A DNA stretch of 63,371 nt, filler included, from Asterionella formosa (Eukaryota): the NCBI GenBank assembly GCA_002256025.1. It is 24 parts of 24 records of this genome, joined end to end, with 100 filler letters (N's around TTAATTAATTAA, not from the genome) between each part and the next. Parts side by side here need not be neighbours in the genome. Positions count along the whole stretch, not along the records: positions 29,199 to 31,740 come from NKIB01015138.1; 23 more parts are not named here. One strand, 5' to 3'. The position numbers and the translations under genes are program-made. The notes under the pieces were generated by a model, which saw only the letters and a list, made by a program, of their open reading frames with translations, made no database searches and was not told the DNA's origin. Below are positions 3-60,839 of this stretch, piece after piece. The number at the start of each line of letters is the position of its first letter. The first letter of the stretch is position 1.

Positions 3-2562
3 TTGACGGATACAAGATCAAAGCATGTGCTCATTATTCTAGTATGCAGGAGTGGTGAAGTCAAAGAAGACTCTCCGATGGAAACTTTATTGCACTTGGA
101 GAGCAATTGCAAACTGACGGGTGAAAAATGCTTAGTGTCGACGGGTATTGACCTTGGGAACTTGCAAATCGATACAGTGAACATGATTATTTCCAACCTG
201 ACAGGCTCAGATCTGGAAGTTACGTCGTCGCTTAGCAAAGTGGTCTTTCGAAAGACACTCGGAAACGTTTTCTTTGTTTTTCAATTTCTGGATATGCTGG
301 CATCTCGCAGGCTATTGGTATTCTCCCTAAAGAACCAAAATTGGGAGTGGGATATTGAAAAAATAGAATCCGAAACGACTGTTGCCGACAACGTCGGAGA
401 ACTGATTGTAAGTAAGATACAGCGACTCAATCAAAATGTCTTGGAAGCCCTCAAGGTTGCGTCTTGTTTGGGACGTTCATTTAATTGCACTGTGTTGCGA
501 AAAATTCTTGCCTCGGAGCTTGCCTTCCAAGAAGGCGTCGAATCCAACGAGGCCTCCTCATCAGAGGATTCTGGATGGATAATCTTCAAAGGGAGCGTGG
601 ATCGTATGCTTGAAATTGCAATTAGCGAAGGAATGATTGAGAATAGCGTCCACCGATACAAGTTCACGCACGATAAAGTAAGTGTTTCATTTGTGATTTT
701 TCGGCACATGTACCTACAAGACTCTAACACCTACTTCGAAGATTCAGTCTTGTTTTTATAATATGATCCCAGAGGGGAAGGAGCGTGGTCTGCTTCATTT
801 GAGAATAGGAGAAGTAGTGCTGAAGTGCTGCATGAATGATGAGGATCCTCTACTTTTTCTTGCTGTTGACCAAACAAATCGAGGACTTAATTTTGTGACC
901 GATGAAAGGCAGAAGGTCGACACGGCAAAATTGAATTTGACGGTAGCAAAATTAGCAAAAGCCAGGTCTGCGTACTTTCCAGCCTCGCAATATCTGAGAA
1001 AAGCACGTGGATTGCTAGAGAAAGAATGTAGGTGGCGCAAGTATTACAATCTAGCACTTGAACTCGCGAGCTTCGGGGCAGAGATGGAATATTGTTCAGG
1101 AGATTTCTTGATGTGCAATGAGTTATTTGATGAAGTACTGGCTTTTTCTGTTTCGCGTCGAGATTGCCTTCGTGTATACTACGCAAAAATTGAGTCTCTC
1201 AGAGCACGAGGTTGGCTATTGGATGCATTGGATCTCGGCTTTAAGTTTCTGTTGCAATTCAAAATTTCGTTTCCGAAGAAACCATCAACAATACATATCC
1301 TCACAAGTCTAGTGCGCGCATCATCACTAGTACCGAAGAACATTAGTGACATTGTGAAATTACCAGAAATGAAAGACGAAGATAAGCTGGCATGCATGAA
1401 AATTATGGGCATTTTGGCTTACAGCGCTTTCTTCTTGGAGAAAGGGAGAGAATTCATCTTAGTCTCTCTTGAGATGATGCGCTTCACGTTACGTTTCGGT
1501 TTGTCTGCGATGTCCACACAAGCTGTGGGCACCTTCGGAATGATAAAAACATTCGTTGGGAGATATGACGATGGGTTTGCCTTTGGTAGGCTGGCAATGC
1601 ACCTCTTGGAAACAACGAAATCACAGGAAGTAGGGGCCCGCACAATACTAGTTGTGTGCTGTTATACAAATCATTGGAAAATGCCTCTCGACACTCTTGT
1701 CGCCCCTTTGCATCGGGCTTACACCAATGGACTTGCCACAAGTGAGATCGGAACTGGTCTTCTTGCAGCTTACAATCGCATTTTGGTTCTTGGCAGTATT
1801 GGCACTCCACTAAATCAAATGGATGACGAAATACTAGCGATTGAAGAGCTATGCTTTGAATTTAAGCAGGATGGTATTAAAATAATGCTTGCCCCAACCC
1901 ACCAAGCAGTCTTGAATTTTCAGGGTCGCTCCACATTTCCAATGATTTTGACAGGAACGATCATGGATCAAGTTGCATTCACCGAAGATGCAAAGAATGC
2001 GAAGAACCAGGTTCTCTTGCACAGCATTACATTCGCTCAATTAAAGTTGGGCCTCCACTTTCAGGAATGGAGTACAGTTTCATGTTTACTTCCAGTGATT
2101 GAGGTACATCGAGCGCAGAGTAAGGGTGCCGCGAAGCACTTCACTGTGTACGACTTTATCTTGGTCTCTGGTATCGCCTACGCGGTAATGTGGCAGCAAA
2201 CTGGAAAGAAAAGTAACCTCAGGAAGTTTAAGCGGGCACTGAAGCAGTCACAGCTGTGGCTTGCGTCAGGGCTGAAGCAGTGTCAAGCAAATTGTTCGTT
2301 TTTGGTTGCAGAAGAGAAAGTGTTGCAGAAGGCTGGAGTAGATGCTATAATACAAGCATTCGACAAGGCAATTCTTGACATGGAGCAGGCAAAGCTTATT
2401 CATTTTCAAGCGTTTGCAAATGATAGAGCAGCAACAATCCTGTCAGAACTGAAAGAGCACACTGCTGCTCTTGAATATTATATTGAGGCCCGAGAATTGT
2501 ACTGGCGATATGGGGCTCATGCGAAGGTTGATCGACTGGACAGTAGAATTGAATCACTTCGC
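3..2562 (+). CDS. Partial COG3899-type AAA ATPase/TPR-like protein (the domain found in multi-sensor kinases and cyclases); one intron at 678-741
   Basis: Motifs KTLGNVFFVFQFL, WEWDIEKI, NVGELIVSKIQRL, LKVASCLG. Splicing GTAAGT(678)...AG(741) restores YKFTHDK/IQSCFYNMIP and joins the two ORFs in frame. C-terminal YWRYGAHAKV. Open at both contig ends. Confidence 0.8.
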
Positions 2563-2662
2563 NNNNNNNNNNNNNNNNNNNNNNNNNNNNNNNNNNNNNN
2601 NNNNNNTTAATTAATTAANNNNNNNNNNNNNNNNNNNNNNNNNNNNNNNNNNNNNNNNNNNN
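2563..2662. other. Artificial contig spacer N44-TTAATTAATTAA-N44 (first of 23)
   Basis: Identical 100-nt spacer with stops in all six frames. Others start at 5226, 7886, 10551, 13211, 15866, 18514, 21162, 23810, 26456, 29099, 31741, 34383, 37024, 39664, 42300, 44936, 47571, 50205, 52839, 55473, 58107 and 60740. Intervening contigs shrink from about 2562 to 2532 nt. Confidence 0.98.
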
Positions 2663-5225
2663 CAGTTTCGGTAGATGAGGACATTTTGGTGGTCGTGGAG
2701 GCGGTGCACACAGCAATCCTACGGAAAGCTATCATACTGACACTGCTAACCCTGTGCCTGTTCCACATGCTCGTATGTTAAATACATGGGGTCATAATAC
2801 TCGTCCATCCGGTTGGGGTACCGTGCCCCGTGCCGATCCTACCGAGAATACATCTGCCCAGGAAATTTCAGTGGTCACGAACCCTCCTGCTGGTCAGATA
2901 GTGACTTTTGTCCCTACTACACAACAGCAGATTGCTGATCGCCATTACAGAGGTATGTGCGATAATAGCGATGCTATTTATAATGACTCGTTGAGTATAT
3001 CTCACGTTAGTCATCACCTGAATAATATTGTTTATTTACAGGTTGAATACACTATGGATACCGCTGTTAATGTTATGCGGGATATATATAACTCTATTGA
3101 TGGACATGATGTTCCACATACATATCAGGGCCCAATTCCGGTTTCCTGTTTTACTTCTAAGGATATATTAACATCAATTGATTTGATTCCGATGTCCCTT
3201 CTAGCGCCAAGATTGGTGGATAATATACCGATACATAAAATACTACGAGTATTATTCGATAGTGGAAGATCGTTATCCTTAGTACATGAACGGGTTATGC
3301 CTCAAGGTATTTCTTTGTCTGACGAGACTACCCAACTAATACATACCATAGCTGGTACTTATTCATCTCATGCCAGTGTCATGCTATATGACCTGATTTT
3401 ACCAGAATTTAATCGATCCGCTCATATTTTACAACAAAAGTGTCAAGTCTTTAATGGTCTATGCACATTTGATGTTATTATAATAGGACGTGATTTCCTA
3501 CGTCAAGTTGGTTTAGCCATTGATTTCGTAAATAACACCATGTCCTGTATGGATATGATTGTTCCTATGCATCCTCTCACATTCTTTGATGATAGAGAAT
3601 GTTTACAAGATGTATTATTATATTTCGATGCACCTATGATTGTGGAATCTTAATATGCGCTGGAAATTAAAGCTTCTGAATATAATTACGTAAATATTGA
3701 TACAGTGGTGGATAAACAAATACATTTGACAACATTACAACGATCATGTTTACGATCTATATTGGTTAAATATCAAACATTATTTGATGGCAAATTAAAA
3801 GTCTATAGCCTCACAAACAGGTAAATTTGGAATTATTATCAAATGCTGTCCCTTGTCATCAACGAGCATATCCGGTCGCTCATATTCATTTAGAAGTTTT
3901 CAAAACGGAATTACAACGATTATGTGATATTGGAGTCCTACAAAAATGTGGTGCTTCTAAATGGGCATCTCCCACTTTTATTATTCCAAAAAAGGATGGA
4001 AGTGTCCGATGGGTATCAGATTTTCGTGAACTTAATAAAGTCATCAATCGCAATATATATCCTTTGCCTCGAATACAAACTATTCTCACTAAACTTGCTG
4101 GATATGTATTTTTCACCAAATTGGATGTTTCCATGCAATACTATACTTTTGCATTGGATGTGGAGAGTCAAAACTTGTGTGTTATTTCAACTCCATTTGG
4201 TTTATATAAATATTTACGCCTGCCTATGGGGGTGAAACAATCATCTGACATTGCACAAGAAACTATGGAACAGATCCTTAGTGATTTAGATGATGTGGAA
4301 ATTTATATTGATGATGTGGGTTGTTTTTCAATGAATTTTTCAGATCACCTTCATTTATTGGACACTATTTTACATCGTTTACAGATAAATGGTTTTACAA
4401 TTAATCCATCTAAGTGTGAATGGGCCGTCCAAGAGACAGATTGGTTAGGCTATTGGTTAACTCCTAATGGACTGAAACCTTGGTCTAAAAAAGTCCGAGC
4501 ATTGATTAATATGTCTTCACCTACCAATCTTAAACAAGTTCGATCATTTCTCGGTGCTGTTACTTACTATCGAGACATGTTTCCTAGACGATCGCATGTT
4601 CTTGGACCACTTACGGATTTAATTGGAACTAGTCCCTTTGTCTGGTTACCTATCCATCAACAAGCTTTTGAAGAAATGAAAGCATTGTTAGTTGCAGATA
4701 CACTCATGCGTTATCCTGACCATAATCTCCCTTTTCATATCTTTACTGATGCCTCTGATTATCAATTAGGGTCGGTCATTATGCAAAATGATCTCCCAGT
4801 TGCTTATTATTCTCGCAAATTATCTGCTGCTCAAAAGAATTATACTACTATTGAAAAAGAATTACTTTCTGTGGTAGAAACTTTCAAAGAATTTCGCTCT
4901 ATGTTATTGGGCGCAGTTCTACATGTTCACACTGATCATCGAAATCTTATTTATAATACATTACATACACAACGTGTTCTACGATGGCGACTTTACATTG
5001 AAGAATACCATCCTACTTTTCATTATGTGAAAGGGACTGACAATGCTATTGCAGATTCCATCTCTCGCCTCCCGAGGCTTGAGTCTTTGGTGGAGGATGA
5101 TATTGATATTGGACCGAAATCTCCAACATCAACTTCCACTTCTACTTTTTCAATTGAATTAGATGATGAACCTCTGCTTACATGTTTCCTTAATCATCCC
5201 ATCTTGACAGACAATATTCAATATC
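2663..5225 (+). mobile_element. Ty3/gypsy LTR retrotransposon pol fragment (protease-RT-RNase H), disrupted
   Basis: Protease LRVLFDSG; RT WASPTFIIPKKDGSVRWVSDFRELNK, LPMG and YIDD; RNase H FTDASDYQLG and YTTIEKELL. In-frame stop at 3651-3653 and a frameshift near 3810. Confidence 0.93.
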
Positions 5226-5596
5226 NNNNNNNNNNNNNNNNNNNNNNNNNNNNNNNNNNNNNNNNNNNNTTAATTAATTAANNNNNNNNNNNNNNNNNNN
5301 NNNNNNNNNNNNNNNNNNNNNNNNNTTGAGGGGTCAAGCAACCGCAAAAAGGGCTCAGTAACCTGTGAATGCAATATCAAAAGATTAAATGCAAAATCAT
5401 GACTACCTGATATATTATTCTACTGTAGGTAGGTAGGACAGACGGTAAAAAAAGTTCCTGCCAAATCCAATTCTAGCACAATAGTATTCAAAACGATCAT
5501 GCCACGAATGAAAGATAACCGTTTTCCGAGCCAGCCAGATTATATATTTTAGTATTGGATCTACAGGTTTGTGTATCCGAGATGTCCAAATCGTCA

Positions 5597-9700: not shown

Positions 9701-10650
9701 AGTACTACCGGTAGGCCATATGAATTTTGGTCAATATGTCTATATACATAAATGTATGATTTCGACCATTTGAAAAATTGGTGATGACTCCCGTTTATTA
9801 AGGGGCTTATTTAAATCAGCCACTGACTTGTAGGTACAAGAATTGACACAACAAAAATTGAAAAAAATCAACAGGTCGTGGAAAACTATGAACTCATCAT
9901 GCATTGTATGTATTTGAATTATGTATAATCAAAATTGATGAAAGTATTCACAGGATGTGCCATAGTATCATGCATGAGGGTGTTTCAAACTATGCAAATG
10001 TTCAACTATATATACATTTAAACTTCTTACAAATCTTTATATATATATAATATATATGTATTCATGGCTGAAACATTTGAAATCATGTTTTCATGTGGTT
10101 CCTTGTCATGCATACAATTTGCTCCTGAATTGAAGGATTAACACAGATGATGACGCGGAAATCGAAAGTGATAATAAAGCACAATGAGCGATACTTGCGG
10201 CTTAGAAGAGAAGGGCGGAATCAATTGATGGTAAGTCAAGAGCAAATGCCTTTCATGTTCCTTGTCATGCTGCATACACTTCCTGAAATGAAGGTTCTCA
10301 ATCAACGCAAAACTGAAGTGACAATACACCATGCGGCTAAGAAGGAGTGAATATGATGGGCGGAGAAGGGCGGAATCAACAAGCTGTGTATAGTATCACA
10401 GCATGTCAAGAGCATATGCCAGGATGATCAATTGTTGAGATTACAATTACGGAATGACTCGTCCCCTTGATTTCAGTGATTCAATAGCTCCTTTTCGATT
10501 TGGTGACTGGCCAACCATCAATGGCTGTGGACAAAAGAAATCGGTAAGTGNNNNNNNNNNNNNNNNNNNNNNNNNNNNNNNNNNNNNNNNNNNNTTAATT
10601 AATTAANNNNNNNNNNNNNNNNNNNNNNNNNNNNNNNNNNNNNNNNNNNN

Positions 10651-12538
10651 ATGGACGAAATGAGGTGGTCCGAGCCACCCCAATCAGAGGACGGGCAGCC
10701 TACTATTAAGAATCATTCCGTGACCCATTTCAATGGTCACCTCTACTGCTTCGGTGGGTACGATGGTAGAAGAAATCACCAGACTCTTCTACTATACAAT
10801 ATAGCCAATCAGCAGTGGCTGCAAACTACGGATAGCGATGTGAAACCACGTTCAGAAGTGAAGGTGGAAGGAACTCCTCCACCGGGACGCAACGGGCACA
10901 CAGCGACATTAGCGACGGACCCAAACGATGAAGAACACGGGAGAATCATAATTATCGGTGGGTGGCTCGGTCAAGGTCCATTGGCAGCCTCCGACATGCA
11001 CGTGCTGGACGTGAGTTCGTCAGGACTGCGTTGGTACCAGCCTGCCGTCAAGGGTTCCACGCCTGGACCCTGCAATATGCATTCAGCTGATTTTGTGCCG
11101 GCCCGTCGAGAAGTGTACGTCTTTCGAGGAGGAAATGGAAGGGAATATTTAAACGATTTACATGCATTGCATGTCGATGCCTATCAGTGGCGAAAGGTAG
11201 AAACCACCGGTCAGCTCCCGCAGCAACGTGCAAATCACTCTAGTGCATACCTCGAAGAAACAGCTGAGTTATTTATCTTTGGCGGGTGGTGCGTATTATG
11301 CTTGCAATGAAGTGCTAATGATACATTACTCTATATTTTATGGTCTCATCAAACTTCTCATTTTTCGCAGGAACGGACGAGAGAGATTGAATGATATTCA
11401 TATTTTGGATACTGCCACTTCAAATTGGACCTGCCCTCATGTCGCTGGTGTTTTACCCCATCCTCGTGCTGGTATGACCTTAACTGCCTTGCGGGGTCGG
11501 CTTTTCCTATTTGGCGGATCTGGAACATCGTCCAAATGTTTTCAAGATTTACAAATTTTGGATCGAAAGGAAATGGCATGGTTGGACGTGAATCAAAGTG
11601 AAGTAACGACAGGTGGAAATAGGGCAGTTGGGTCAAATTATCATGAGGACGATCCTGATAATTCTAGAATGATAGGGAGTGTTTCTGATGTTGAAAACAA
11701 GGGTGGTGGATTTGCTGGTTCTCGGGCTGACTGGAGATCCCGAGATAACATAACAGGCGTAGTTGCATCTCCTAATCCCAACGACGAAGATTCACAGACA
11801 GGTATCCAAATTCAAGGTCCGGGACCAGGGCGCCGTGCTGGTCATACTGCCACTGCCGTTCATCGCAGGCTATTTATCTTTGGAGGATCCTGTGGATCAG
11901 ACTATCTGAATGACTTTTTCGTGCTTGACACGGACCCACCACCACGCGCATGCGTCAATGAACCAGCATCGCTTCAATTGTTTGAAAGACGCCTGAAGCA
12001 TTTCTTTAATGATGAGGAATTTTCTGACGTTCGTTTCGTTGTGGAAGGCCAATATGTTTATGGGCACAAGCTTGTTTTAAGTATTGTGAGTGATTGTTTT
12101 CGCGCCATGTTTACTACTGGCTTTCGCGAATCGGAAGCAGGGGCCGAAATCGAAATTCCGAACACTTCCTGCCAGGCATTTTTGGCGATGATGGAGTACA
12201 TCTATTCAGGTCGCATCCCCAAGCTGGATATTGCGCTTGATGGTAATATCGAAGTGAACCAAGTGGTGGACTTGATGGAACTTGCAGACCAGTTCTTTTT
12301 GGATCATTTGAAGCAAAGGTGTGAAGCCCTTCTGCAATCAACCGTTACTGTTGAGACGGTGGAATACTTGCACCAAGTGGCGCAAAAGACCAACTCGGCA
12401 CAACTGCTAAATATATGTGAACACTTTGAACGGAATCACGATGGGCAAGCTGAACAACCGCAAGCGGGCGAAGGTGAGCCATCAGATGCTGCGCCCGTTG
12501 CTATTGAGTACAACGGCAATGACGACATGCAAGCATGA
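10651..12538 (+). CDS. Kelch-repeat plus C-terminal BTB/POZ protein (LZTR1-like architecture); intron at 11289-11370
   Basis: Several Kelch repeats (YCFGGYDG, PPGRNGHTAT, FLFGG, RAGHTAT). BTB motif FSDVRFVVEGQYVYGHKLVLS..FRAMF. Splicing gives FIFGGW/NGRERLND. The ATG sits at the contig edge, so the 5' end may be incomplete. Confidence 0.9.
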
Positions 12539-21261: not shown

Positions 21262-23670
21262 ACGTCCTCCAGATAAGGTCACTATGTCATTTCATAACAA
21301 AACCACTCAATTTGGTTATCATGGTTTACCAATATTGATTCCCCTACAACTTCATCAATATTCAATCAACACACCATGTTGAACGTCTCAATTCATTGTC
21401 TCATAGTATAGAATAAGGGAATATCAATATGTCATTCATAAAACAAGGAACATCCTCGAGATGAGGTCACTATGTCATTTCATAACAACACCACGAACAC
21501 CATTTGGTAATCATGGCTGGTTTACCAATACTGACTCCCCTTTAACTTCATCAAAATTCCATCAACTTGCCTTGTTTAATGTCTCTATTCACTGTCCAAT
21601 AGTATAAAATAGGGCACTATCAATATATAATCTATACAACAAGAAACATCCTCCAGATGAGGTCACTATGTCATTTCATGACAAAACCACACCATTTGGT
21701 AATGATGGTTTCCCAATACTGATTCCCCTATAACCTCATCAATAGTCAATCAACACAACCTGTTGAACATCTCAATTCATTGGCTCATATATTAGATTAG
21801 GAAACTATCAATATGTCATTCATACCACTTGGAACGTCCTCTAGATGAGGTCACTATGTCATTTCATAACAAAATCACACCATTTGGTAATCATGGTTTA
21901 CCAATACTGACTCTCCTATAGCTTCATCAGTATTTAGTCAACCCACCTTGTTAAACGTCTCAATTCACTGGCCCATAGTATAGAATAAAGTATTATCAAT
22001 AAATAATTAATACAACAAGGAACGTCCTCCAGATAAGGTCGCTATGTCATTTCATAACAAAACCACTGAATTTGGTTATCATGGTTTACCAATATTGATT
22101 CCCCTACAACTTCATCAATAGTCAATCAATTCATCCTGTTGAACGTCTCCACTCATTGGCTCATAGTATAGAAATAAGGTTCTATCAAAATATAATTAAT
22201 ACCACAAGGAACATCCTCCAGATGAGGTCACTATGTCATTTCATGACAACACCAGACCAATTGGTAATGATGGCTTCCCAATATTGATTACCCTGTCACT
22301 TCTTCAATATTCAATCAACACACCATGTTTAACGTCTCTATTCACTGTCCAGGAACTGTCAATATATAATTTATACAACAAGAAACATCCTCCAGATGAG
22401 GTCACTATCTCGCTCATTTCCTAACAAAACCACTCAATTTGGTAATCATGGTTTACCAATACTGATTCTCCAATAACTTCATCAATACTCCATCAACCCA
22501 CCTTGTTAACGTCTCTATTCACTGTCCAATAGTATAAAATAGGGCACTATCAATATATAATCTATACAACAAGAAACATCCTCCAGATGAGGTCACTATG
22601 TCATTTCATGACAAAACCACACCATTTGGTAATGATGGTTTCCCAATACTGATTCCCCTATAACATCATCAATAAACAATCAACACATCCTGTAGCAACA
22701 CACCATATTGAACGTCTCCACTCATGGGCTCATACTATTGAACAAGGGACTACCAATATATCATTTATACAACAAGAAACATTTTCCAGATGAAGTCACT
22801 ATGTCATTTCATAACAATATCACACCATTTGGTAACGATGGTTTCCCAATACTGACTCCCCTATAACTTCATCAATATTTCATCAACCCACCTTGTTAAA
22901 CGTCTCAATTCACTGGCTCATAGTATAGAATAGGGTACTATCAATATATAATTAATACAACAAGGAACGTCCTCCCAATAACGTCACTATGTCATTTCAT
23001 AACAAAACCCCCATTCAATTTGGTAATCATGGTTTACCAATATTGATTCCCCTGTAACTTGATCAATATTCAATCAACCCACCTTGTTAAACGTTTCAAT
23101 TCACTGGCCCATAGTATAGAATATGGTACTATTAATATATAATTAATACAACAAGGAACGTCCTCCAGATGAGGTCACTATGTCATTTCCTGACAAAACC
23201 ACACCATTTGGTAATGATGGTTTCCCAATACTGATTCCCCTGTAACTTCATCAATATTCAAACAACACACCATATTAAACGTCTCTATTCACTGGCTCAT
23301 GGTATAAAATAGGGCACTATCTTATACAACAAGAAGGAACGTCCTTCAGATGAGGTCACCATGTCATTTTCTAACAAAACCAATCAATTTGGTAATCATG
23401 GTTTCCCAATACTGATTCCCCTTAAACTTCATCAATACTTTATCAACACAGCCTGTTGAACGTCTCAATTCATTGGCTCATAGTCTAGACTAAGGGACTA
23501 TCAATATGTCATTCATACCACAAGGAACGTCCTCTAGATGAGGTCACTATGTCATTTCATAACAATACCACACCATATGGTAATAATGGTTTACCATTCC
23601 TGATTCCCCTTTAACTTCATCAATAGTCAATCAACACATCCTGTTGAAGGTCTCAACACATTGGCTCATA
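21262..23670. repeat. 188-bp satellite array, about 13 diverged monomers
   Basis: The (A/G)CTATG anchor of GAGGTCACTATGTCATTTCATAAC recurs at 21281, 21469, 21665, 21853, 22041, 22230 and on to 23546; modal period 188. Confidence 0.95.
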
Positions 23671-28290: not shown

Positions 28291-31200
28291 CAACAAATGG
28301 GTTGTTCTATGGACAGGTGTAGTGATGGTGATGTGGAAAATTGCGATTTGCAGATGGATTGTTCAGAGATCAAATCTTGGACATGCCATTGTTGCATACA
28401 AAGAATCGCCTAGCAAATGGCCTCCAAATCCATCAGATGGTCAAAGTGCCTCAACACATATGATAGTATCTAATCATTAATTCCTGTAGTTTGTTGTCAT
28501 TATACCTGTTCATTGGTTCACCAATGCAACCAACAAAGCACCACCTTTGTTGATCAACTGGGTTGATTTAATATTGCTAGTGGTTTTCTCATGTTGTGCT
28601 CGAGGGGTACCTTAATGGCCAATTTTTCCAAATCAAGAAAGGACTGACATAAAGTACAACTCTATTGTAGGCATTTGTCCAGAGGCTCCACCAAGACTTC
28701 GGTGAAACTCGAAAAAGAAGTTTTACCTATCATAGGAAGAACAGGCAAAAGCAAACCACCCGGAAAATGCAACGTTTGACTACATACCGTTACGCACGGC
28801 GAAGGTTGCATGTGATTCGTTAGGGCACCAGGTATGACACAGGTAGTACCGGTATATAATACCGGTAGGCAACTATAATGGAAATGGAGTATGGTACAAG
28901 GTATCAGGTATATAACGTCAATAAATAACCCCTTTTGAATTTTGTGGATGACACATCCAAACAAATGGATTTGTTAAAGTATTACCTTTTTGTATAGATC
29001 TATATCGTTAGACAAAGAAGACTATAGATAGAGACGTTCGTTTCTCTTTCCGTTTCTATATTCTTATTGTGAGTTTACTAATCTAGTTTAGGTTGTTCNN
29101 NNNNNNNNNNNNNNNNNNNNNNNNNNNNNNNNNNNNNNNNNNTTAATTAATTAANNNNNNNNNNNNNNNNNNNNNNNNNNNNNNNNNNNNNNNNNNNNTA
29201 CCGTCGCTTTCCCTCTGTTGGTCTGCTTTTTATGGAAGCCAGCAAAGATTATGAGGTCCACAATAATCTTGCCTTTACATGATCATGTAGTAGTATGCTG
29301 AGTGATTTATGTCGTTGATGAGTGAATGTTCAAAGAGCGCAAATGCGCTCTGTATCATCAAATGACAGCGCCGTAGAACGCCTGTATAGGGCCTTCCAGT
29401 CCCTCCTCTGTATTGTCCACTCAATAGGCTCCAACAACTATGGTTGAGGCATTAGAAAGGATTCGAACACAATGATGCTGTGCATGTATGAGTAGTATGA
29501 GTAGCAGCCGTCATGGCAGTGTCATCGAGCCAACTGATTTCCATGTAGCAAAAGATATATTGGTGGTTTCAATGAAGGCTACTATGTAACTATGTAGGCT
29601 AGGGTTTAAAAGTTTGTAAAAAGAGGCGGGGACAAAATATCTTTTTCCAATAAATAAAATAAAATAAATATTAGTTATGATGTCGTTCTGTTGATTTCGA
29701 CATGAAGTATGGCAGACGAACGGATTCTGGATTCCGTCCTGTGGTACACTCGTGTGTAGAATATATATATTGTATGTAGCCTGTTCATATTTGACCTACG
29801 TAAATTTCGAAGTGTCTGGTAAAACTGAAATGCAACTCAACAGCACTACAGGTAGGTTGTATGCCGTACAAAGTACCAGTAGTATATTGGAACAAACACA
29901 TGTCTAATACGTATGCATGTGACAGAGATGAAGACGACGGACATACAACTGGTACAGTACAATGTACTCAGTCATCACTGTCTGCAAGGCATCATGTCTG
30001 ATTTATTGCTGCTGTTGCGCATACATTATATATATCGACGCAAACCCCCAGATGGTGGACGGTGGTGTGCTATTCATCTACATCTCCATCTCCATGTCCA
30101 CGTTGACAACTTTCTGAACAACAAGCTGAAGGAAGGATAAAGGCAATCACAAAATTGATTACGAACTTTACTCTTAAACACTTCAAACCTAAGGACACAA
30201 CATCAAAGTTCCTTAACCGATCTATACAAACCAAAGACCCATTTGCATACTTTTACTTATTGGCGAAAATACATAAGACACCGCTAACAACCCGGCCCAT
30301 CATCAGTGTTAGCGGAAGTATCTGCCATGGGCTAGGCAAATGGACTGATGTCAGTCTTCAAAAAATCACTCAACATCTACCATTTACCCTATCAAGCTCC
30401 TTTGAACTCGTTCATGATTTTCGCTCCATTAATAATGTTCTAACAACCGCAACCTTATTTACTATGGACGCAATTTCTATGTACACTAACATAGACACAA
30501 CCCACACACTTTCCGTCATTAATAAATTCCTACGCATTGACAGACCAGACATCTGCCTCAACAAAGATATTAATATTGATGCACTCATGAATGCACTCAA
30601 AATTATCATGCGACATAACATTTTTAAATTCGGAAATACATACTGGATCCAAACATCTGGAACAGCTATGGGGACACCTCTGGCACCAACATATGCCACT
30701 CTCTATTTTGCAATTCACGAAATACAAAATCCCAACGTTTCCACAAATATCCTTCTATAGAAGGTATATTGATGATTGCTTTATAATCTGGGTCCCTACA
30801 TCAACTACCCATATCAAGGATGAAAAATCACACAACTTGTTTATCAGCTTGATGAATAATTTTGGCATACTAAAATGGAATGCAGAACCACGGAAATTAT
30901 CAACAACTTTCCTGGATCTCACAATTTCTATCAATCAACATACCCGTTCTATTGATACAACACTATTCGAAAAATTTATGAATCCCTATCTCTACATACC
31001 ACAACATAGCGCACACCCTCCTGGTGTCCTTCGCGGCAATTCTTACCTCACTACGGAATTTCTCCGGAAATCAATGTACTATCCAAAGGTTGATAATCGC
31101 TTATAATCGCCCTAAAAATATTGGTAATTATACATCACCACGGAAACTGAGATCAGACACCACTTTAGTCAGTACTCACCTACTTACAACACAACTTGAT

Positions 31201-31339
31201 ACTGAACGGGACACATCAACCTCTACTAGGTCCATACTACCCTCCCCTGCTTCCACTCCTGGTGCAATTTCGCAGCCAAACACATCTGCCCACCCCCCGC
31301 ACGCACCATGACTAAAGTAAAACAAGACTACAGATCCAA

Positions 31340-31396
31340 GCCAACTGATGAAGCCCCTTCAGGCGAAAAGTAACATTAGTCTCATTACTTTTTGGC
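31340..31396 (+). ncRNA. Type I hammerhead ribozyme
   Basis: Stem I GCCAA(31340-44)/TTGGC(31392-96); core CTGATGA(31345-51)+A; stem II GCC/GGC with loop CCTTCA; GAAA(31365-68); stem III AAGTAA(31368-73)/TTACTT(31385-90); unpaired cleavage base T31391. Confidence 0.88.
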
Positions 31397-31442
31397 AACT
31401 TAAGTAGTCACCTCATCGTCGCTTGGATAATAGTCATTGTAG

Positions 31443-31470
31443 CCCTCACCCCTACCCTACCCTAACCCTA
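31443..31470 (+). repeat. Degenerate reverse-complement telomeric repeats (CCCTAA-like) at the PLE 3' end
   Basis: Sequence CCCTCA CCCCTA CCCTA CCCTAA CCCTA. Confidence 0.7.
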
Positions 31471-31841
31471 GCACTAATAGTGCATACGTAATCTCTGAAC
31501 TGACATGGTACTCAACCAGCACATGACTTGCTATTTTGACAGTAACTGCTGCAAAGGCAAATAAGTGGTGGGCAAACAAAAATGCCCTCTAGTGTTGCAA
31601 TATTACATGCTTCTGTTGGAACTGGCCCTGTAAAATTATTCTTTCCAAAAGATAATACAACTGTCAAGAAAGTAAAATTTTAGAACAAATGGTCAAGAAA
31701 TAGAAGTTTCAGATAAGCAAAACTTACTCAATAAAGACATNNNNNNNNNNNNNNNNNNNNNNNNNNNNNNNNNNNNNNNNNNNNTTAATTAATTAANNNN
31801 NNNNNNNNNNNNNNNNNNNNNNNNNNNNNNNNNNNNNNNNG

Positions 31842-49098: not shown

Positions 49099-50204
49099 CT
49101 AGTCAACATCAGCAAAGCCCTCATATCCAATGCTCTTCCAGGTATTGGTGATTGTTTGAATTGAGACTCTAGCCCATGCCATCTCTACCCATTGTGCAAT
49201 GTGGTGCCTTTGCACCTTGGGATTATCCACATTGGCAACCATGTAGTCTTCCCAATATCCTCTCATGTAGTCCTTGAAGGGCTTATTAACTCCTACATCC
49301 AACACTTGAAGTCTAGATGTGTAGCCTGGGAGGACGAAATCAATCTCAGTGCCGCAATTTTTAATTGCATCAACACAACGTCCTACCTTGTGGACAGTAA
49401 AATCATCCATAAGAAGGTGAGTAGGCTCACCGCCTTTTCCCAACGCAAATGGTTGCCAAACTTTTTCGATCCATTGTAAAAATATGTCTGTATCAACCCA
49501 AGCTTTGGGTTGACAAGCGTATTTAATACTGACCGGAAAAAGTTGTTGATTGTTGTCTAGTAATCCCAATTGCCTGGAAATACGTCCATCCCTTGTTCCT
49601 GTAAATACAATGAATGGTGGCAACTTCTCACCACTCATTGTCACCCCTAACAACACAGTGCAACGATTCGAATTTCCTGTTGTTCGAAGCCCAATGGTCC
49701 TTTCGCCTCGGGTTGCCAAAGTCTTTGATCCAAACATGTCAAAATTGATGTTTGTCTCATCAATATTGACAATGTTTCCAGCAGGAAATTCGAACGCAGC
49801 AATTTGATTGTTGACGTAGGAAACAAAATCTTGAATTGTCTCCTGATCCAGCCTTGTATTTTGGGCGACACGAGTCACACGCCTAATGACAATGTCCTCA
49901 CGGGCAAGCCAGCGCTTGATCCGTTTTTCAAGTGCCTTCAGCGACACATTTTCGTTCCCAGGTTGCCTCTTAAGCTCAACACTGAGCATCCTGGTGGTGC
50001 AGGCCCTATCTTGAAGCCGCAACTGGTCAAAAAGAGTCTTCAATCCTTCGAAATCAGCAGCACTTTTTGGAGAGCGGCCCGGGTGAGCGATTTTTTTCAT
50101 CAACACCTGCCTCTGAATCACACCTTCTTCCTGCAGAGGAATCTCCGCCACCTCCGCCGGAACCACAACCATTGCACCATCCAGCATGGACTTCCAGCTC
50201 CGGA
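49099..50204 (-). mobile_element. pogo/Tigger-like DDE_1 transposase ORF (5' truncated by contig end)
   Basis: Catalytic motifs NIDET, LLMDDFTVH and LQVLDVGVNKPFK, plus GEKLPPFIVF and KAWVD; uninterrupted frame. Confidence 0.92.
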
Positions 50205-50304
50205 NNNNNNNNNNNNNNNNNNNNNNNNNNNNNNNNNNNNNNNNNNNNTTAATTAATTAANNNNNNNNNNNNNNNNNNNNNNNNNNNNNNNNNNNNNNNN
50301 NNNN

Positions 50305-55572: not shown

Positions 55573-57870
55573 ATATGTCATTCATACAACAAGGAACATC
55601 CTCGTGATGAGGTCACTATGTCATTTCATAACAACACCAGACCATTTGGCAATGATGGTTTCCCAATACTGCTTCCCCTATAACTTCATCAATATTCAAT
55701 CAACCTACCTTGTTAAACGTCTCAATTCACTGGCCCATAGTATAGAATAAGGTACTATCAATATATAATGAATACAACAAGGAAAGTCTTCCAGATGAGG
55801 TCACTATGTCATTTCATAACAAAACCACTCAATTTGGAAATTATGGTTTACCAATGTTGATTCCGCTTTTACTTCATCAATATTCAAAAAAAACACCATG
55901 TTAGACATCTCAATTCATTGCCTCATAGTATAGAATAAGATACTATCAATATGTCATTCATACAACAAGGAACATCCTCGAGATGAGGTCACTATGTCAT
56001 TTCATAACAACACCAGACCATTTGGCAATGATGGTTTCCCAATACTGATTCCCCTATAACTTCATCAATATTCAATCAACACACCATGTTAGACGTCTCA
56101 ATTCATTGCCTCAAAGTATAGAATAAGATACTATCAATATGTCATTCATACAACAAGGAACATCCTCGTGATGAGGTCACTATGTCATTTCATAACAACA
56201 CCAGACCATTTGGCAATGATGGTTTCCCAATACTGCTTCCCCTATAACTTCATCAATATTCAATCAACACACCATGTTAGACGTCTCAATTCACCGGAAG
56301 GTACTAGTCTAGAATAAGTCACTATCAATATGTAATTCATACAACAAGGAACATCCTTCAGATAAGCGAGGTCACTATGTTATTTCATAACATAACCACA
56401 CATTTTGGTAATGATGGTTTCCCAATACTGATTCCCCTATAACTTCATCAATTTTCAATCAACATACCAAGTTGAACGTCTCCATTCATCGGAACGTAGT
56501 TTAGAGTAAGTCACAATCAATATGTCATTCATACAACAATGAACATCCTCTAGGTGATGTCACTATGTTATTTCATAAGAAAACCACACCATTTGGTAAT
56601 GATGGTTTCCCAATACTGACTCCCCTATAACTTCATCAATATTCAATCAACACACCATGATGAACAGCTCAATTTATCGACACTGAGTATAGAATAAGGT
56701 ACTATCAATATATAATGAATACAACAAGGAACATCCTCCAGATCATATCACTATGTCATTTCATAACAACACCAGACCATTTGGTAATGATGGTTTCCCA
56801 ATACTGATTCCCCTATAACTTCATCAATATTCAATCAACCGACCTTGTTAAATGTCTTTATTCACTGTCCAATAGTATAAAATAAAATACTATCAATATG
56901 TCATTCATACAACAAGGAACATCCTCGTGATGAGGTCACTATGTCATTTCATAATATAACCACACCATATGGTAATGATGGTTTCCCAATACTGAATCCC
57001 CTATAACTTCATCAATATTCAATCAACCCACCTTGTTTAACGTCTCAACTCCTCACTGGTGCATAATAAAGAATACGTTACTATCAATATATAATTAATA
57101 CAACATTGAACGTCCTCCAGATGAGGTCACTATGTCATTTCATAACAAAACCACACCATTTGGCAATGATGGTTTCCCAATACTGATTCCCCTATAACTT
57201 CATCAATAGTCAATCAACAAACCATGTTGAACGGCTCAATTCATCGGAATGTAGTATAGAATAAGTCACTATTAATATGTCATTCATACAACAAGGAACA
57301 TCCTCTTGATGATGTCACTATGGTATTTCATAACAAAACCACACAATTTGGTAATGATGGTTTACCATTACTGTTTCCCCTATAACTTCATCAAAATTCA
57401 ATCAACACACCCTGTTGAACAGCTCAATTCATCGGCACTGAGTATAGAATAAGGTACTATCAATATATAATGAATACAACAAGGAACATTCTCGAGATGA
57501 GGACACTATGTCATTTCATAACAAAATCACACCATTTCGTAATGATGGTTTACCAATACTGATTCACCTATAACTCCATCAACATTCAACCAACAAATCA
57601 TGATGAACCGTACTTTTTTACTGGGACAAAGTATAGAATAAGATACTATCATTATATCATTCATACAACCAGCAAGGATCGTTTTCCAGATGATATCAAT
57701 ATGATATCATTCTTTCATAACAAAACCACACCATTTGGTTATGATGGTTTCCCTTTACTGATTCCTCTATAACTCCATCAATATTCAAGCATTGCATTAT
57801 GTTGAACGTCTCCGTTCACTGGCACAAAGTATAGAGTACGGTACTATTAATTTATCATTCATGCAAAAAG
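55573..57870. repeat. 188-bp satellite array (same family as 21262-23670), decaying toward its right edge
   Basis: About 12 monomers with the same consensus; divergence increases after about 57550. Confidence 0.95.
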
Positions 57871-58206
57871 TACCATCTTCATGATTAGGTGTGTTGGTAT
57901 ACAATTCTATATCAATGCCGCACACCCACCTAATCTTTGCTACTGACTCTTCTGTATCTCTATCAATATGCATCCAATGTATGATGTGGAATGATTCAAT
58001 TTACTGGAAGATATTGTACAATAAGTTACTATCACTATGCAAGTCACTGGAAGATAGTATACAATAAGTTACTATCAATAGCTATATCATTCATGCAATT
58101 AGCACANNNNNNNNNNNNNNNNNNNNNNNNNNNNNNNNNNNNNNNNNNNNTTAATTAATTAANNNNNNNNNNNNNNNNNNNNNNNNNNNNNNNNNNNNNN
58201 NNNNNN

Positions 58207-60739
58207 GGGAGCTCGGGAAAGTCGTGCCTACTCCAAGGCTGGAAGTGTGGCGTACAGTACCGTCTCGGCCATCAAGACGGTGTTGTCGTTGAATGCCATT
58301 CCGGAAATGATTCGTCAATATAAGGACGCCACTTTGGAAGCCTTCAATTTTGCTGTGGGTCCCTTGTGGTTGCAAGGATTTGCGTTTGGTAAGATTGTGT
58401 GGTTTTAAATGATTGGTTTCCAGAAATGAAATTGATTTTCAGTTGCTGAAACAGCATTGCGACTACTCTAACATACTAACCTTTTTATCATCTTGATGCA
58501 GGTTCTATGCTTGGAACTTTTATTATTTTGTACTGCATGTTGGCGCTGTTTGGAACCTACTTGTTATGGTCAGACGTACAAGACTCTGGTTGCGACCCTT
58601 CGGAAGCTGTGGACAATAATGCAACATGTAGCAATACGGGAACGCAAGTATTTGGAGCCATGCTAGGTGTTGCCTTTGCTTCACAGGGTATGTCTCAGGT
58701 TGGAAACTTTGTCGAGACCTTTACAGCGGCTCGTGTTGCTGCCTATCCAGCCCTACAGGCGATTCATCGAAAGCCAGGGGCTCCGGCGGAAAAAATTTAT
58801 GAGACCCAAGAGGAATCGGCAGATGCTTCCAAGTCCGCGGACCGGTCCATGAACAAGTCGACTAAAAGTACAGTAAAAGAAGAGGGTGAACGAAAGCTCA
58901 AGGCTATCTTACCAGCGTACAAAATTGATGCTTTCTCTGATGAGGGCCTAAAACCAACCAACATTAAGGGAAATATCAGCTTCAAGGATGTTGTGTTCAC
59001 GTACCCTACTCGACCAGACAATCGTGTTTTGAAGGGACTTAACTTGGAAATTGAAGCTGGGAAAACAGTAGCTCTCGTCGGACCGAGTGGTGGAGGTGAG
59101 TGAGGCTGTGTATGCATTATGACCAACTGCGGGCAATAAGCTTACTTCCTTTCGCGTACTCCTTTCCATAACTTAGGCAAGTCAACAACAGTGGCGTTAA
59201 TTGAACGATTTTATGACCCATTGAGCGGAACCATCGAGCTCGACGGCATGAACTTGAAGGATATTAATGTGCACCACCTTCGCTCCCTGATTGGGTATGT
59301 TGGTCAGGAGCCCATTTTGTTCGCTACTTCTATTGCTGCGAACATCAAGTACGGCAATCCTAGTGCCACTCAGGAGCAAATTGAGGCCGCAGCCAAGATG
59401 GCCAATGCCCATGATTTCATTTCCTCGTTCCCGGATGGGTACGCTACTCAATGTGGAGACAAGGGAAGCCAAATGAGTGGTGGTCAAAAGCAACGTATTG
59501 CTATTGCTCGTGTTCTTGTATCCAACCCCGAAATTCTCCTTTTGGACGAAGCAACCTCTGCCCTTGACTCTGAATCTGAGCTCGTTGTACAGGATGCGTT
59601 GGACAATGTGGTGGCGAAACAGAAACGTACAACTATCGTCATTGCCCATCGGCTAAGTACGATTCGCAACGCTGACACAATTGCTGTGATTTCTGGTGGC
59701 GTTGTTGCCGAACAAGGTACTCACGATGAACTCATGGCTCTTGAAACGGGCCATTACCGCATGCTTGTTGAGAAGCCAGAGCGTTCTGGCAACTCTTTGC
59801 CATCGTCGCGTTCTAGCAGAGCGGACTTGACTACGCTCGATGATGATTCCGGTATTAAAGTCTCTGTCATTGACAAAGGCAGTTTGCACTTCGAGTTCAA
59901 AGACGTGAAGTTTGCTTACCCTACCCGTCCTAGCAAGAATGTCTTCAACGGGTTCAACCTTTCGATCAACAGAGGAGAAACTGTTGCTCTTGTCGGGCCA
60001 TCTGGAGGGGGCAAGTCCACGACTGTTGCTATGATTGAGCGTTTTTACGACTGCAAAGAGGGATCAATTGAATACATGGGAAATGATATCAAGTCTTTGA
60101 ATGTTCATTGGTATCGTGATCAAATTGGTTACGTCGGCCAGGAACCAACCCTTTTCAACACTACAATTGGTCAGAATATCGCATACGGTGCTCCTGATGC
60201 AAGCAAGAGTGATATTGAAGCCGCTGCTGTTCAAGCAAACGCTCACGATTTCATTATGGGCTTTCCCGACGGCTATGAGACATCAGTTGGCGAACGAGGC
60301 ACTCAATTATCCGGTGGTCAGAAGCAACGTGTTGCTATTGCTCGGGCATTGATTAAAAAACCAAAAGTGCTTATTCTCGATGAAGCGACATCTGCCCTTG
60401 ATACAGAATCAGAAGCTGTGGTCCAAGCTGCTCTGGACAAGTTGATGGCTTCCAGCGAGCGTACCACCATCGTCATAGCTCACCGACTATCCACCATTCG
60501 CAATGTAGATCGCATCGCCTTCATTGCAGGAGGAAAGGTCCTCGAGTATGGAAGCCATGAAGTTTTAATGACAAAAGCTCACGGTCGATACAAACGTCTC
60601 GTTGACGCCCAGAGCAGAGGTGCTAACACTGAAAACCAATCTCTCAAGAAAAGAATGGATGACAAGTCGGCTGATGATGGCGATGACGCGGAAAAACCTG
60701 ATTTTGAGGCTGAACTTGAAGAGCTTGAACAAAAAGCAT
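58207..60739 (+). CDS. ABCB (MDR/P-glycoprotein-like) transporter fragment, TMD-NBD-NBD; introns at 58389-58501 and 59096-59176
   Basis: Two complete NBDs, each with GPSGGGKST, VGQEP, (M/L)SGGQKQR, LDEATSALD and IAHRLSTI. Splicing restores the first Walker A. Open at both contig ends. Confidence 0.92.
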
Positions 60740-60839
60740 NNNNNNNNNNNNNNNNNNNNNNNNNNNNNNNNNNNNNNNNNNNNTTAATTAATTAANNNNN
60801 NNNNNNNNNNNNNNNNNNNNNNNNNNNNNNNNNNNNNNN

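Follow-up and report, generated by a model that had tools for sequence, protein, structure and literature searches.

A type I hammerhead, predicted to be slow, in the terminal repeat of a Penelope-like element associated with telomeres in Asterionella formosa

Results

A broken Penelope-like element upstream of a hammerhead

The DNA analysed here (hereafter the window) is a stretch of 63,371 nt from Asterionella formosa, in which 24 parts of the genome assembly are joined end to end with filler between them. It contains an LTR-type protease/RT/RNase H element (697-5281), a Kelch-BTB gene (10603-12538), a DDE transposase (49099-50256), an ABC ATPase gene (59140-60795) and a 188-nt tandem repeat in two arrays of ~12 copies each (21262-23670 and 55573-57877). 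In addition, a broken reverse transcriptase (RT) of a Penelope-like element (PLE) lies upstream of a hammerhead motif on the same strand, and a CCCUA(A) tract follows downstream at 31443-70. The RT is read in two frames:

30107..30760, plus strand: 5'-truncated PLE RT, N-terminal part to GTAMG; the frame ends at a frameshift
30591..31106, plus strand: second frame of the PLE RT, with YRRYIDD

Relative to longer copies, ~315 nt are absent from the window copy at about 31036/37, and this copy is a dead, 5'-truncated, frameshifted and internally deleted insertion.

The RT contains DKNLGP, GTAMG and YRRYIDD, which we take to be the motifs of PLE-type RTs. The Atlas clusters nearest to it are eukaryotic RTs whose commonest taxon is Rotifera (score 0.96), while Pfam RVT_1 did not match the RT of the element and a PDB search with it gave no match. 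In the copy L005, the ORF reaches its stop codon before the hammerhead without a GIY-YIG endonuclease domain, and a low-sensitivity search for this domain gave no match in 40 aligned RT proteins. Telomeric repeats in reverse complement lie directly 3' of the hammerhead, 5' truncations are capped by telomere repeats, and repeat-ORF-repeat units occur in tandem, a layout found in endonuclease-less PLEs. The element fits the endonuclease-less PLEs as described in the available text of PMC8557442 and PMC6431247, and the provisional label Athena/Coprina-type follows descriptions in the literature. Many of its metagenome relatives have no clear CCCUAA tract.

A genome search with a 281-nt query gave at least 40 matches. 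Although most of the copies have lost 5' sequence, their hammerhead is intact and joined to the telomere tract. In the locus L072, the two cut sites of a tandem unit are 3,495 nt apart (~3.5 kb). The RNA runs that contain the element come from algal and freshwater samples. In one polyA RNA run, contigs reach a depth of ~20,000 over 31250-31296, each with several differences from the window. The segment 3' of the telomere tract (31476-31510) matches another repeat, and the flanks differ in two runs.

Anatomy of the hammerhead at 31321-31440

Judged from its sequence, the motif at 31321-31440 is a real type I hammerhead, for which self-cleavage is predicted. A sequence check and a descriptor search of the window confirmed all coordinates of the original prediction, including the type I assignment, the UUU triplet, the A15.2-U16.2 pair and the cut site at 31391. 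The parts of the hammerhead and its flanks are as follows:

31322..31330, plus strand: 5' strand of the outer distal helix (GACUA at 31326-30, extendable), partner 31431-40
31334..31339, plus strand: 5' strand of the distal helix, AUCCAA, partner 31423-28; found in both folds (hammerhead and off-fold, below)
31340..31344, plus strand: 5' strand of stem I, GCCAA, pairing with UUGGC at 31392-96
31345..31352, plus strand: core CUGAUGA (31345-51) plus an extra A (31352) between positions 9 and 10.1
31353..31364, plus strand: stem II, GCC (31353-55) with GGC (31362-64), 3 bp, G10.1-C11.1, 6-nt loop CCUUCA
31365..31390, plus strand: GAAA (31365-68) and stem III (31368-73 with 31385-90; 6 bp, 11-nt loop)
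31381..31383, plus strand: CUC in loop III, conserved in the clade (comparison of clusters)
31389..31391, plus strand: UUU triplet, A15.2-U16.2, U17 at 31391; predicted cut between 31391 and 31392
31392..31396, plus strand: 3' strand of stem I, UUGGC, the 5' end of the predicted 3' product
31397..31422, plus strand: 26-nt bulge on the 3' side with the anti-core UCAUCGU (31413-19), predicted partner 31344-51
31425..31430, plus strand: GGAUAA motif, conserved in the clade (comparison of clusters)
31443..31470, plus strand: C-rich tract of reverse-complement telomeric repeats CCCUA/CCCUAA, predicted to be single-stranded

The window copy contains CUGANGA, GAAA, A15.1-U16.1, H17 and three helices with stem I open, as a type I hammerhead does. 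The register of the triplet is fixed, since there are five U between C31388 and G31394 and four of them have partners. All three helices pair as had been claimed, but the core is not quite canonical because of the extra A31352 between A9 and G10.1, which the original prediction had missed along with a competing predicted off-fold. The core pattern was expected 0.02 times by chance in the window and observed once, and the descriptor search of the whole window gave this single match. The 120-mer folded with z = -5.0, and none of 200 shuffles was equally stable; for the C-tract, the mean predicted unpaired probability over 31444-65 was 0.98.

The check with Infernal and Rfam hammerhead models that had been proposed for this motif gave no hammerhead match at the thresholds used, namely with Rfam 15 over the window at gathering score, over 31100-31700 at E ≤ 10 and over 12 related loci at E ≤ 5. 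Rfam 15 misses this hammerhead family.

Two features had been presented as more unusual than they are. According to published work, PLE hammerheads of fungi and protists normally have a large helix III, such as the stem III here (available text of PMC4209133). The UUU site is atypical with respect to viroids, not with respect to PLEs, because U17 occurs in 24 of the 56 metazoan rows of Fig. S3 of that paper (our own count), with UUU in the Crassostrea row. As a separate observation, ACUUAAGU (31398-31405) is self-complementary and could support dimer contacts; this property is kept with wobbles in the L027-type variant described below and broken in L017 and L018.

Conservation within the genome

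The identical core was found at 18 places in the genome, and all 17 that reach the triplet read UUU. Among 9 distinct copies, a set without near-duplicates and truncated copies, the mean pairwise difference was 1.5% in the 57-nt ribozyme (31340-96), against 23.6% in the 30 nt preceding it and 34.7% in the C-tract. The 3' side is conserved too, with 8.3% difference over 31397-422 and 4.4% over 31423-43. This comparison of copies shows the predicted hammerhead fold to be under strong selection.

Stems I-III are nearly invariant within the genome, with one compensatory row. The original prediction had also proposed that stem I extends distally, and ATCCAA/TTGGAT and GACTA/TAGTC are indeed able to pair, but this pairing is specific to the family and not clade-wide. 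Over 15 rows, ATCCAA/TTGGAT was 93.9% paired, with one compensatory pair (U-A in place of A-U, shared by 3 related rows) and wobble changes of two kinds, and GACTA/TAGTC was 87.3% paired, with one compensatory row; at the outer pair of the latter, 5 of 11 rows are unpaired. Each of these changes is probably one event, because the rows are related. The distant cluster L088 has the same distal layout with AUCUCA/UGAGAU, although such pairing is not general across clusters. The covariation check suggested for this motif gave a compensatory change in the distal helix among copies, and stems I and III covary across clusters (below). An alternative distal helix, GACUAC/GUAGUC (31326-31/31404-09), is predicted to be possible in short transcripts. 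The large internal loop had been thought to serve tertiary contacts; none could be shown, and the loop holds the anti-core UCAUCGU.

A pattern search of the genome gave 54 matches, of which 18 are this core and the other 36, matches by pattern only, are at the level of the control (59); no second hammerhead family was found in the genome by this search. An amplified hammerhead fragment lies inside another repeat in L027, L028, L030, L058, L060, L062, L064, L073, L074, L076, L077 and L079. The fragment, present in at least 12 copies, is cut in loop II (-35) and has telomere repeats on both sides. Some copies have TACCAGTA in the loop III hairpin and others its reverse complement, and L076/77/79 carry a compensatory change in stem III.

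A predicted off-fold in the window family

For the 120-mer, the fold of lowest predicted energy differs from the hammerhead, in that UCAUCGU (31413-19) pairs with the core. In this off-fold, the core GAUGA would pair with 31413-17, stem III would be lengthened via U17-A14 and stem I would be open, while the distal helices are kept. Nearest-neighbour folding in full context gave a pair probability of 0.0 for stem I. The ensemble penalty for the hammerhead fold was ~3.5 kcal/mol in RNA ending at 31410-20 and 11.4 at 31440, and the full-context penalty was 6.1-13.6 in 8 of 9 copies (including L014, which has a broken stem I) and 3.6 in L017, all of these energies ignoring tertiary contacts.

The anti-core helix contains wobble changes alone, with no compensatory change of its own. 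Taken alone, the anti-core goes weakly beyond chance, as the observed value was reached by 18 of 300 shuffles of 31410-20 and 7 of 300 shuffles of 31397-422, and by 0 of 300 shuffles of 31397-443. A clade-wide switch of this kind was rejected, since the 3' extension adds a penalty of 6.3 kcal/mol in the window and at most 3.7 in the other 21 clusters. We put forward the modelled off-fold as a hypothesis at the level of the family.

U17 and an extra A are fixed in metagenome relatives

The alignment of 40 RT proteins led to 78 metagenome loci, drawn from the best 80 of 505 confirmed candidates. Using a descriptor that left position 17 and the inserted base free, we found 47 plus-strand hammerheads beside related RTs in 41 of the 78 loci, together with 2 low-score matches on minus strands. 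The other 37 loci had no hammerhead match; many of them end too early and several have long flanks. U17 and one extra A after CUGAnGA were present in all 47 hammerheads.

The metagenome hammerheads plus the window form 22 clusters at 75% identity, which are not 22 independent trials because of common ancestry; the RTs of 21 clusters are 29-58% identical. The triplets are CUU (9), GUU (9) and UUU (4), with an unambiguous register in the clusters without U-runs, and the 15.2-16.2 pairs are G-C (9), C-G (9), A-U (3) and G-U (1). The first three pairs of stems I and III all pair in 22/22 clusters, and both stems covary freely across them, as the helices of a type I hammerhead would. G10.1-C11.1 is invariant and stem II has 2-4 bp across the clade. 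Loop contacts were sought in the clade hammerheads and none was found. At the level of the aligned sequences, U17, the extra A and the 2-4 bp stem II are shown to be fixed across the clade.

Two further motifs recur. GGAUAA is exact in 11 of the 22 clusters (0.16 expected) and occurs with at most one mismatch in 19 (3.9 expected), mostly 21-44 nt 3' of the cut. CUC is present in loop III of 19/22 clusters (6.8 expected), usually 7-9 nt before U16.1. A pseudoknot between loop III and GGAU was considered and found no support: in 19 of 22 clusters (3 without GGAUAA were dropped) the mean helix was 3.58 bp, compared with 3.61 for non-cognate combinations (p 0.64) and 3.58 for shuffled loops, in a comparison to which two invariant motifs would give no signal. 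Pairing of GGAU was not general either, with p 0.16 against non-cognate and 0.02 against shuffled sequence on the upstream side, and p 0.20 and 0.40, respectively, on the downstream side.

Viral contigs gave 28 pattern matches, with no relative among them. One subclade (L148, L150, L151, L154, L158 and L161) keeps U17 and has lost or altered GGAUAA; its units reach 6.9 kb, and its ORF1 is much longer, with 767-820 aa in L148, L150 and L154. The contig L121 (1-60) starts like a 3' cleavage product, with GGATAA ~30 nt in, and its locus has no hammerhead.

Unit layout, telomere junctions and RNA contigs

Where units follow each other in tandem, the ORF of the next unit has the 3' product as its leader, and the ribozyme lies ~80 nt before the next ORF1 ATG. 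This ATG is 82 nt 3' of the cut in L080, and among 19 metagenome cases with an upstream hammerhead it is at 74-182 nt in 18 and at 33 nt in one. Cleavage would part the RT message from the telomeric tract, as the original prediction stated; what it had missed is that, the 3' product being the leader of the next ORF, the cut would therefore also create an RT message.

In five contigs that represent one event (L023-26 and L029), telomere repeats are joined to the first base of the 3' product, and the piece continues through the C-tract to UACAAAA, where the next unit starts, and from there passes into a repeat-rich gene of the host. In L144, which belongs to an unrelated family from another sample, a second short unit lies between telomere repeats and starts at most 1 nt from its own cut. 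The exact cut-site junctions represent two events, one at 0 and one at -1, which are independent and come from unrelated families. A further telomere-capped start lies at -4 (L022), and the contig L106 begins 2 nt into the 3' product (+2). The junction of L150 at -2 was counted as weak, as it lies within a T-run at a contig end. With the junction at -4 counted as near, four of the six telomere-capped 5' junctions in the genome lie elsewhere (-1021, -891, -755 and -35). The chance of at least one of three short junctions in a 2-nt window is 0.06 and that of two of three in a 5-nt window is 0.009, where both windows were chosen post hoc and the U-run blurs the junction position by a few bases. 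If the RT stalled where stem III begins, the resulting junction would be the same as after cleavage. Junctions of this kind, seen at chromosome ends in two unrelated families, hint at cleavage in the cell.

In L020, L022, L052 and L054, a common short sequence (…CCTAGAGGCGTC…CCCTTT…) precedes the telomere repeats at PLE junctions; a second RNA that attaches to telomeres may have this sequence as its 3' end.

Contigs from all four RNA runs analysed for this span the site uncut; contigs cannot show ends and may contain DNA. A higher RNA depth 3' of the cut in one run was discarded as a sign of cleavage, because the data are contigs and truncated copies add to depth.

Discussion

Comparison with known hammerheads

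Type I hammerheads with a large helix III were described in fungal and protist endonuclease-less PLEs by Cervera and De la Pena (2014; PMC4209133), who reported cleavage of a fungal PLE hammerhead as a monomer and a base between positions 9 and 10.1. According to the available text, these hammerheads are of type I with a large helix III, monomer-competent and without a recognisable loop I-II contact, and they lie in terminal repeats of PLEs associated with telomeres. The hammerhead of the window resembles them in type, helix III and location and is predicted to be of the monomer type; a search for loop contacts gave none here. In the metazoan alignment of that paper, both the extra base and U17 are common, as here. 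The original view of the motif as a monomer-type type I hammerhead belonging to a PLE is supported, and the arrangement of a hammerhead at the 3' end of a PLE, as well as U17 (once as UUU) in a PLE alignment, is already published. The same text does not mention a fixed U17 plus A10, CUC, GGAUAA, the off-fold or cut junctions, although its protist drawings may show the triplet.

In Terminon/Athena and Coprina elements (Arkhipova et al. 2017, via the available text of PMC6431247 and PMC8557442), the hammerhead lies directly upstream of reverse-complement telomeric repeats, and telomere-capped 5'-truncated copies and head-to-tail chains occur, as here. In contrast to these elements, the unit here is small (3.5 kb), and cut-site footprints are not mentioned for them in that text. 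In the PAc Poseidon element of Anolis (PMC11167929, available text), a terminal-repeat hammerhead likewise lies at the repeat-ORF junction and reverse transcription initiates internally. Its hammerhead needs protein to cleave, which is a precedent for a switched ribozyme. Unlike the element here, PAc Poseidon is endonuclease-positive and has a minimal hammerhead without helix III; for this lizard PLE, cleavage was unnecessary for insertion in vitro and no in vivo reads ended at the site.

Outside PLEs, the available text of PMC13725137 describes hammerheads in the 5' UTR of chrysoviruses and fusariviruses that resemble those here in being type I with a long helix III and a short helix II (1-2 bp in the viruses) and in lying upstream of an ORF. 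They lack loop contacts and cleave slowly, and a balance of cut and uncut RNA is proposed to be functional; in contrast to the element here, they belong to RNA viruses without a telomere tract, and that text does not state their position 17. The CChMVd (+) hammerhead also has an extra A10 between A9 and G10.1, which lowers its rate moderately, but it belongs to a viroid and has a GUC site and loop-loop contacts (PMC1636495, available text).

Our literature search, with figures and subscription papers beyond its reach, found no description of a fixed NUU subtype with a tiny stem II, of CUC/GGAUAA motifs in PLE hammerheads, of telomere-capped 5' junctions at a hammerhead cut or of a predicted off-fold for PLE hammerheads. 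The search also gave no measured cleavage rate for a UUU triplet.

A probable, deliberately slow hammerhead

We consider it probable, with moderate confidence, that the terminal repeat of this endonuclease-less (Coprina/Athena-type) PLE contains a functional type I hammerhead that is deliberately slow, with cleavage predicted. A U at position 17 probably slows hammerhead cleavage, for which PMC1636495 gives partial support. The earlier suggestion that slow cleavage could be functional agrees, in the sense of a trait under selection, with the invariance of U17.

Transcripts that read through several tandem units would be cut after NUU at some sites only. A cut in the upstream repeat would set the 5' end of an RNA with leader and CCCUAA tract followed by ORF1 and the RT, whereas an uncut downstream repeat would keep the CCCUAA tract on the message, where, by pairing with the G-rich end of a chromosome, it could prime the reverse transcription that gives long copies. 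If priming takes place in the leader of a cut RNA, the RT would run off at the cut, and the product could be capped by telomerase to give telomere-3' product-telomere units. Cleavage may be damped by U17, which is able to pair with A14 and so zip up stem III, by a short stem II without loop contacts and, in the window family only, by the off-fold once 31413-31440 has been transcribed. By analogy, the mycovirus type I hammerheads with a short helix II would be comparable, being slow yet cutting in vivo (PMC13725137, available text). Several results speak against this reading, namely the four telomere-capped junctions away from the cut, the predicted pair probability of 0.0 for stem I, an off-fold that is confined to one family and has no compensatory change of its own, the 37 loci with no hammerhead match, and the lizard PLE that inserts in vitro independently of cleavage.

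A less likely alternative is that selection maintains the fold chiefly as a scaffold, for presenting the CCCUAA tract or binding the RT, and that it rarely cuts, the junctions being RT stalls at stem III. The predicted off-fold, which buries the core and leaves the C-tract free, would suit such a role, as would the uncut contigs in all four RNA runs. In the available text, PMC6431247 describes the fold as exposing repeats, with cleavage auxiliary, and PMC1636495 excludes a third-position U when the first is A, the needed contacts being unable to form. However, all catalytic bases are kept in 22 clusters while the helices covary freely, cleavage in monomer form is published for a fungal PLE hammerhead with this architecture (PMC4209133), and junctions lie at 0 and -1 in two unrelated families.

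It appears improbable that efficient double cleavage yields RNA of unit length, which would then form circles and be copied into cDNA longer than one unit, with U17 serving ligation or being neutral. This route through circular RNA was proposed in PMC4209133 (available text), and six metagenome loci with two hammerheads around one unit and the tandem 3.5-kb unit of L072 are in line with it. Most copies, however, are 5'-truncated with an intact junction of hammerhead and telomere tract, which a linear uncut template explains directly, and the RNA-run contigs are uncut. Finally, the broken RT of the window copy and the empty Rfam searches notwithstanding, it is hardly credible that UUU is a decay mutation of a dead copy, a reading refuted by UUU in 17/17 genome copies reaching the site and U17 in 47/47 relatives, or that the whole motif arose by chance (expectation 0.02).

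Meaning for the element family

The slow-hammerhead reading refines a known system, as the element and the general type of the motif were already known; the role of the hammerhead in PLEs is called unclear in the available text of PMC8557442. Junctions at the predicted cut are indirect evidence that cleavage takes place in the cell, and they offer an inexpensive test for any set of genomes. Moreover, this natural family, in which a triplet considered poor is fixed and surrounded by compensating changes, would be a ready panel for the tuning of cleavage rate by U17 and A10. More speculatively, and on balance unlikely, the clade may use a protein-gated hammerhead subtype (A10, U17, mini stem II, CUC and GGAUAA), in which the telomerase-like protein of the element would bind the motifs and switch cleavage on, and the cut would bound a leader of ~75-85 nt with a CCCUAA anchor that is copied onto chromosome ends as a unit. 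If this is true, the system would resemble a rudimentary telomerase RNA with a ribozyme-made template boundary.
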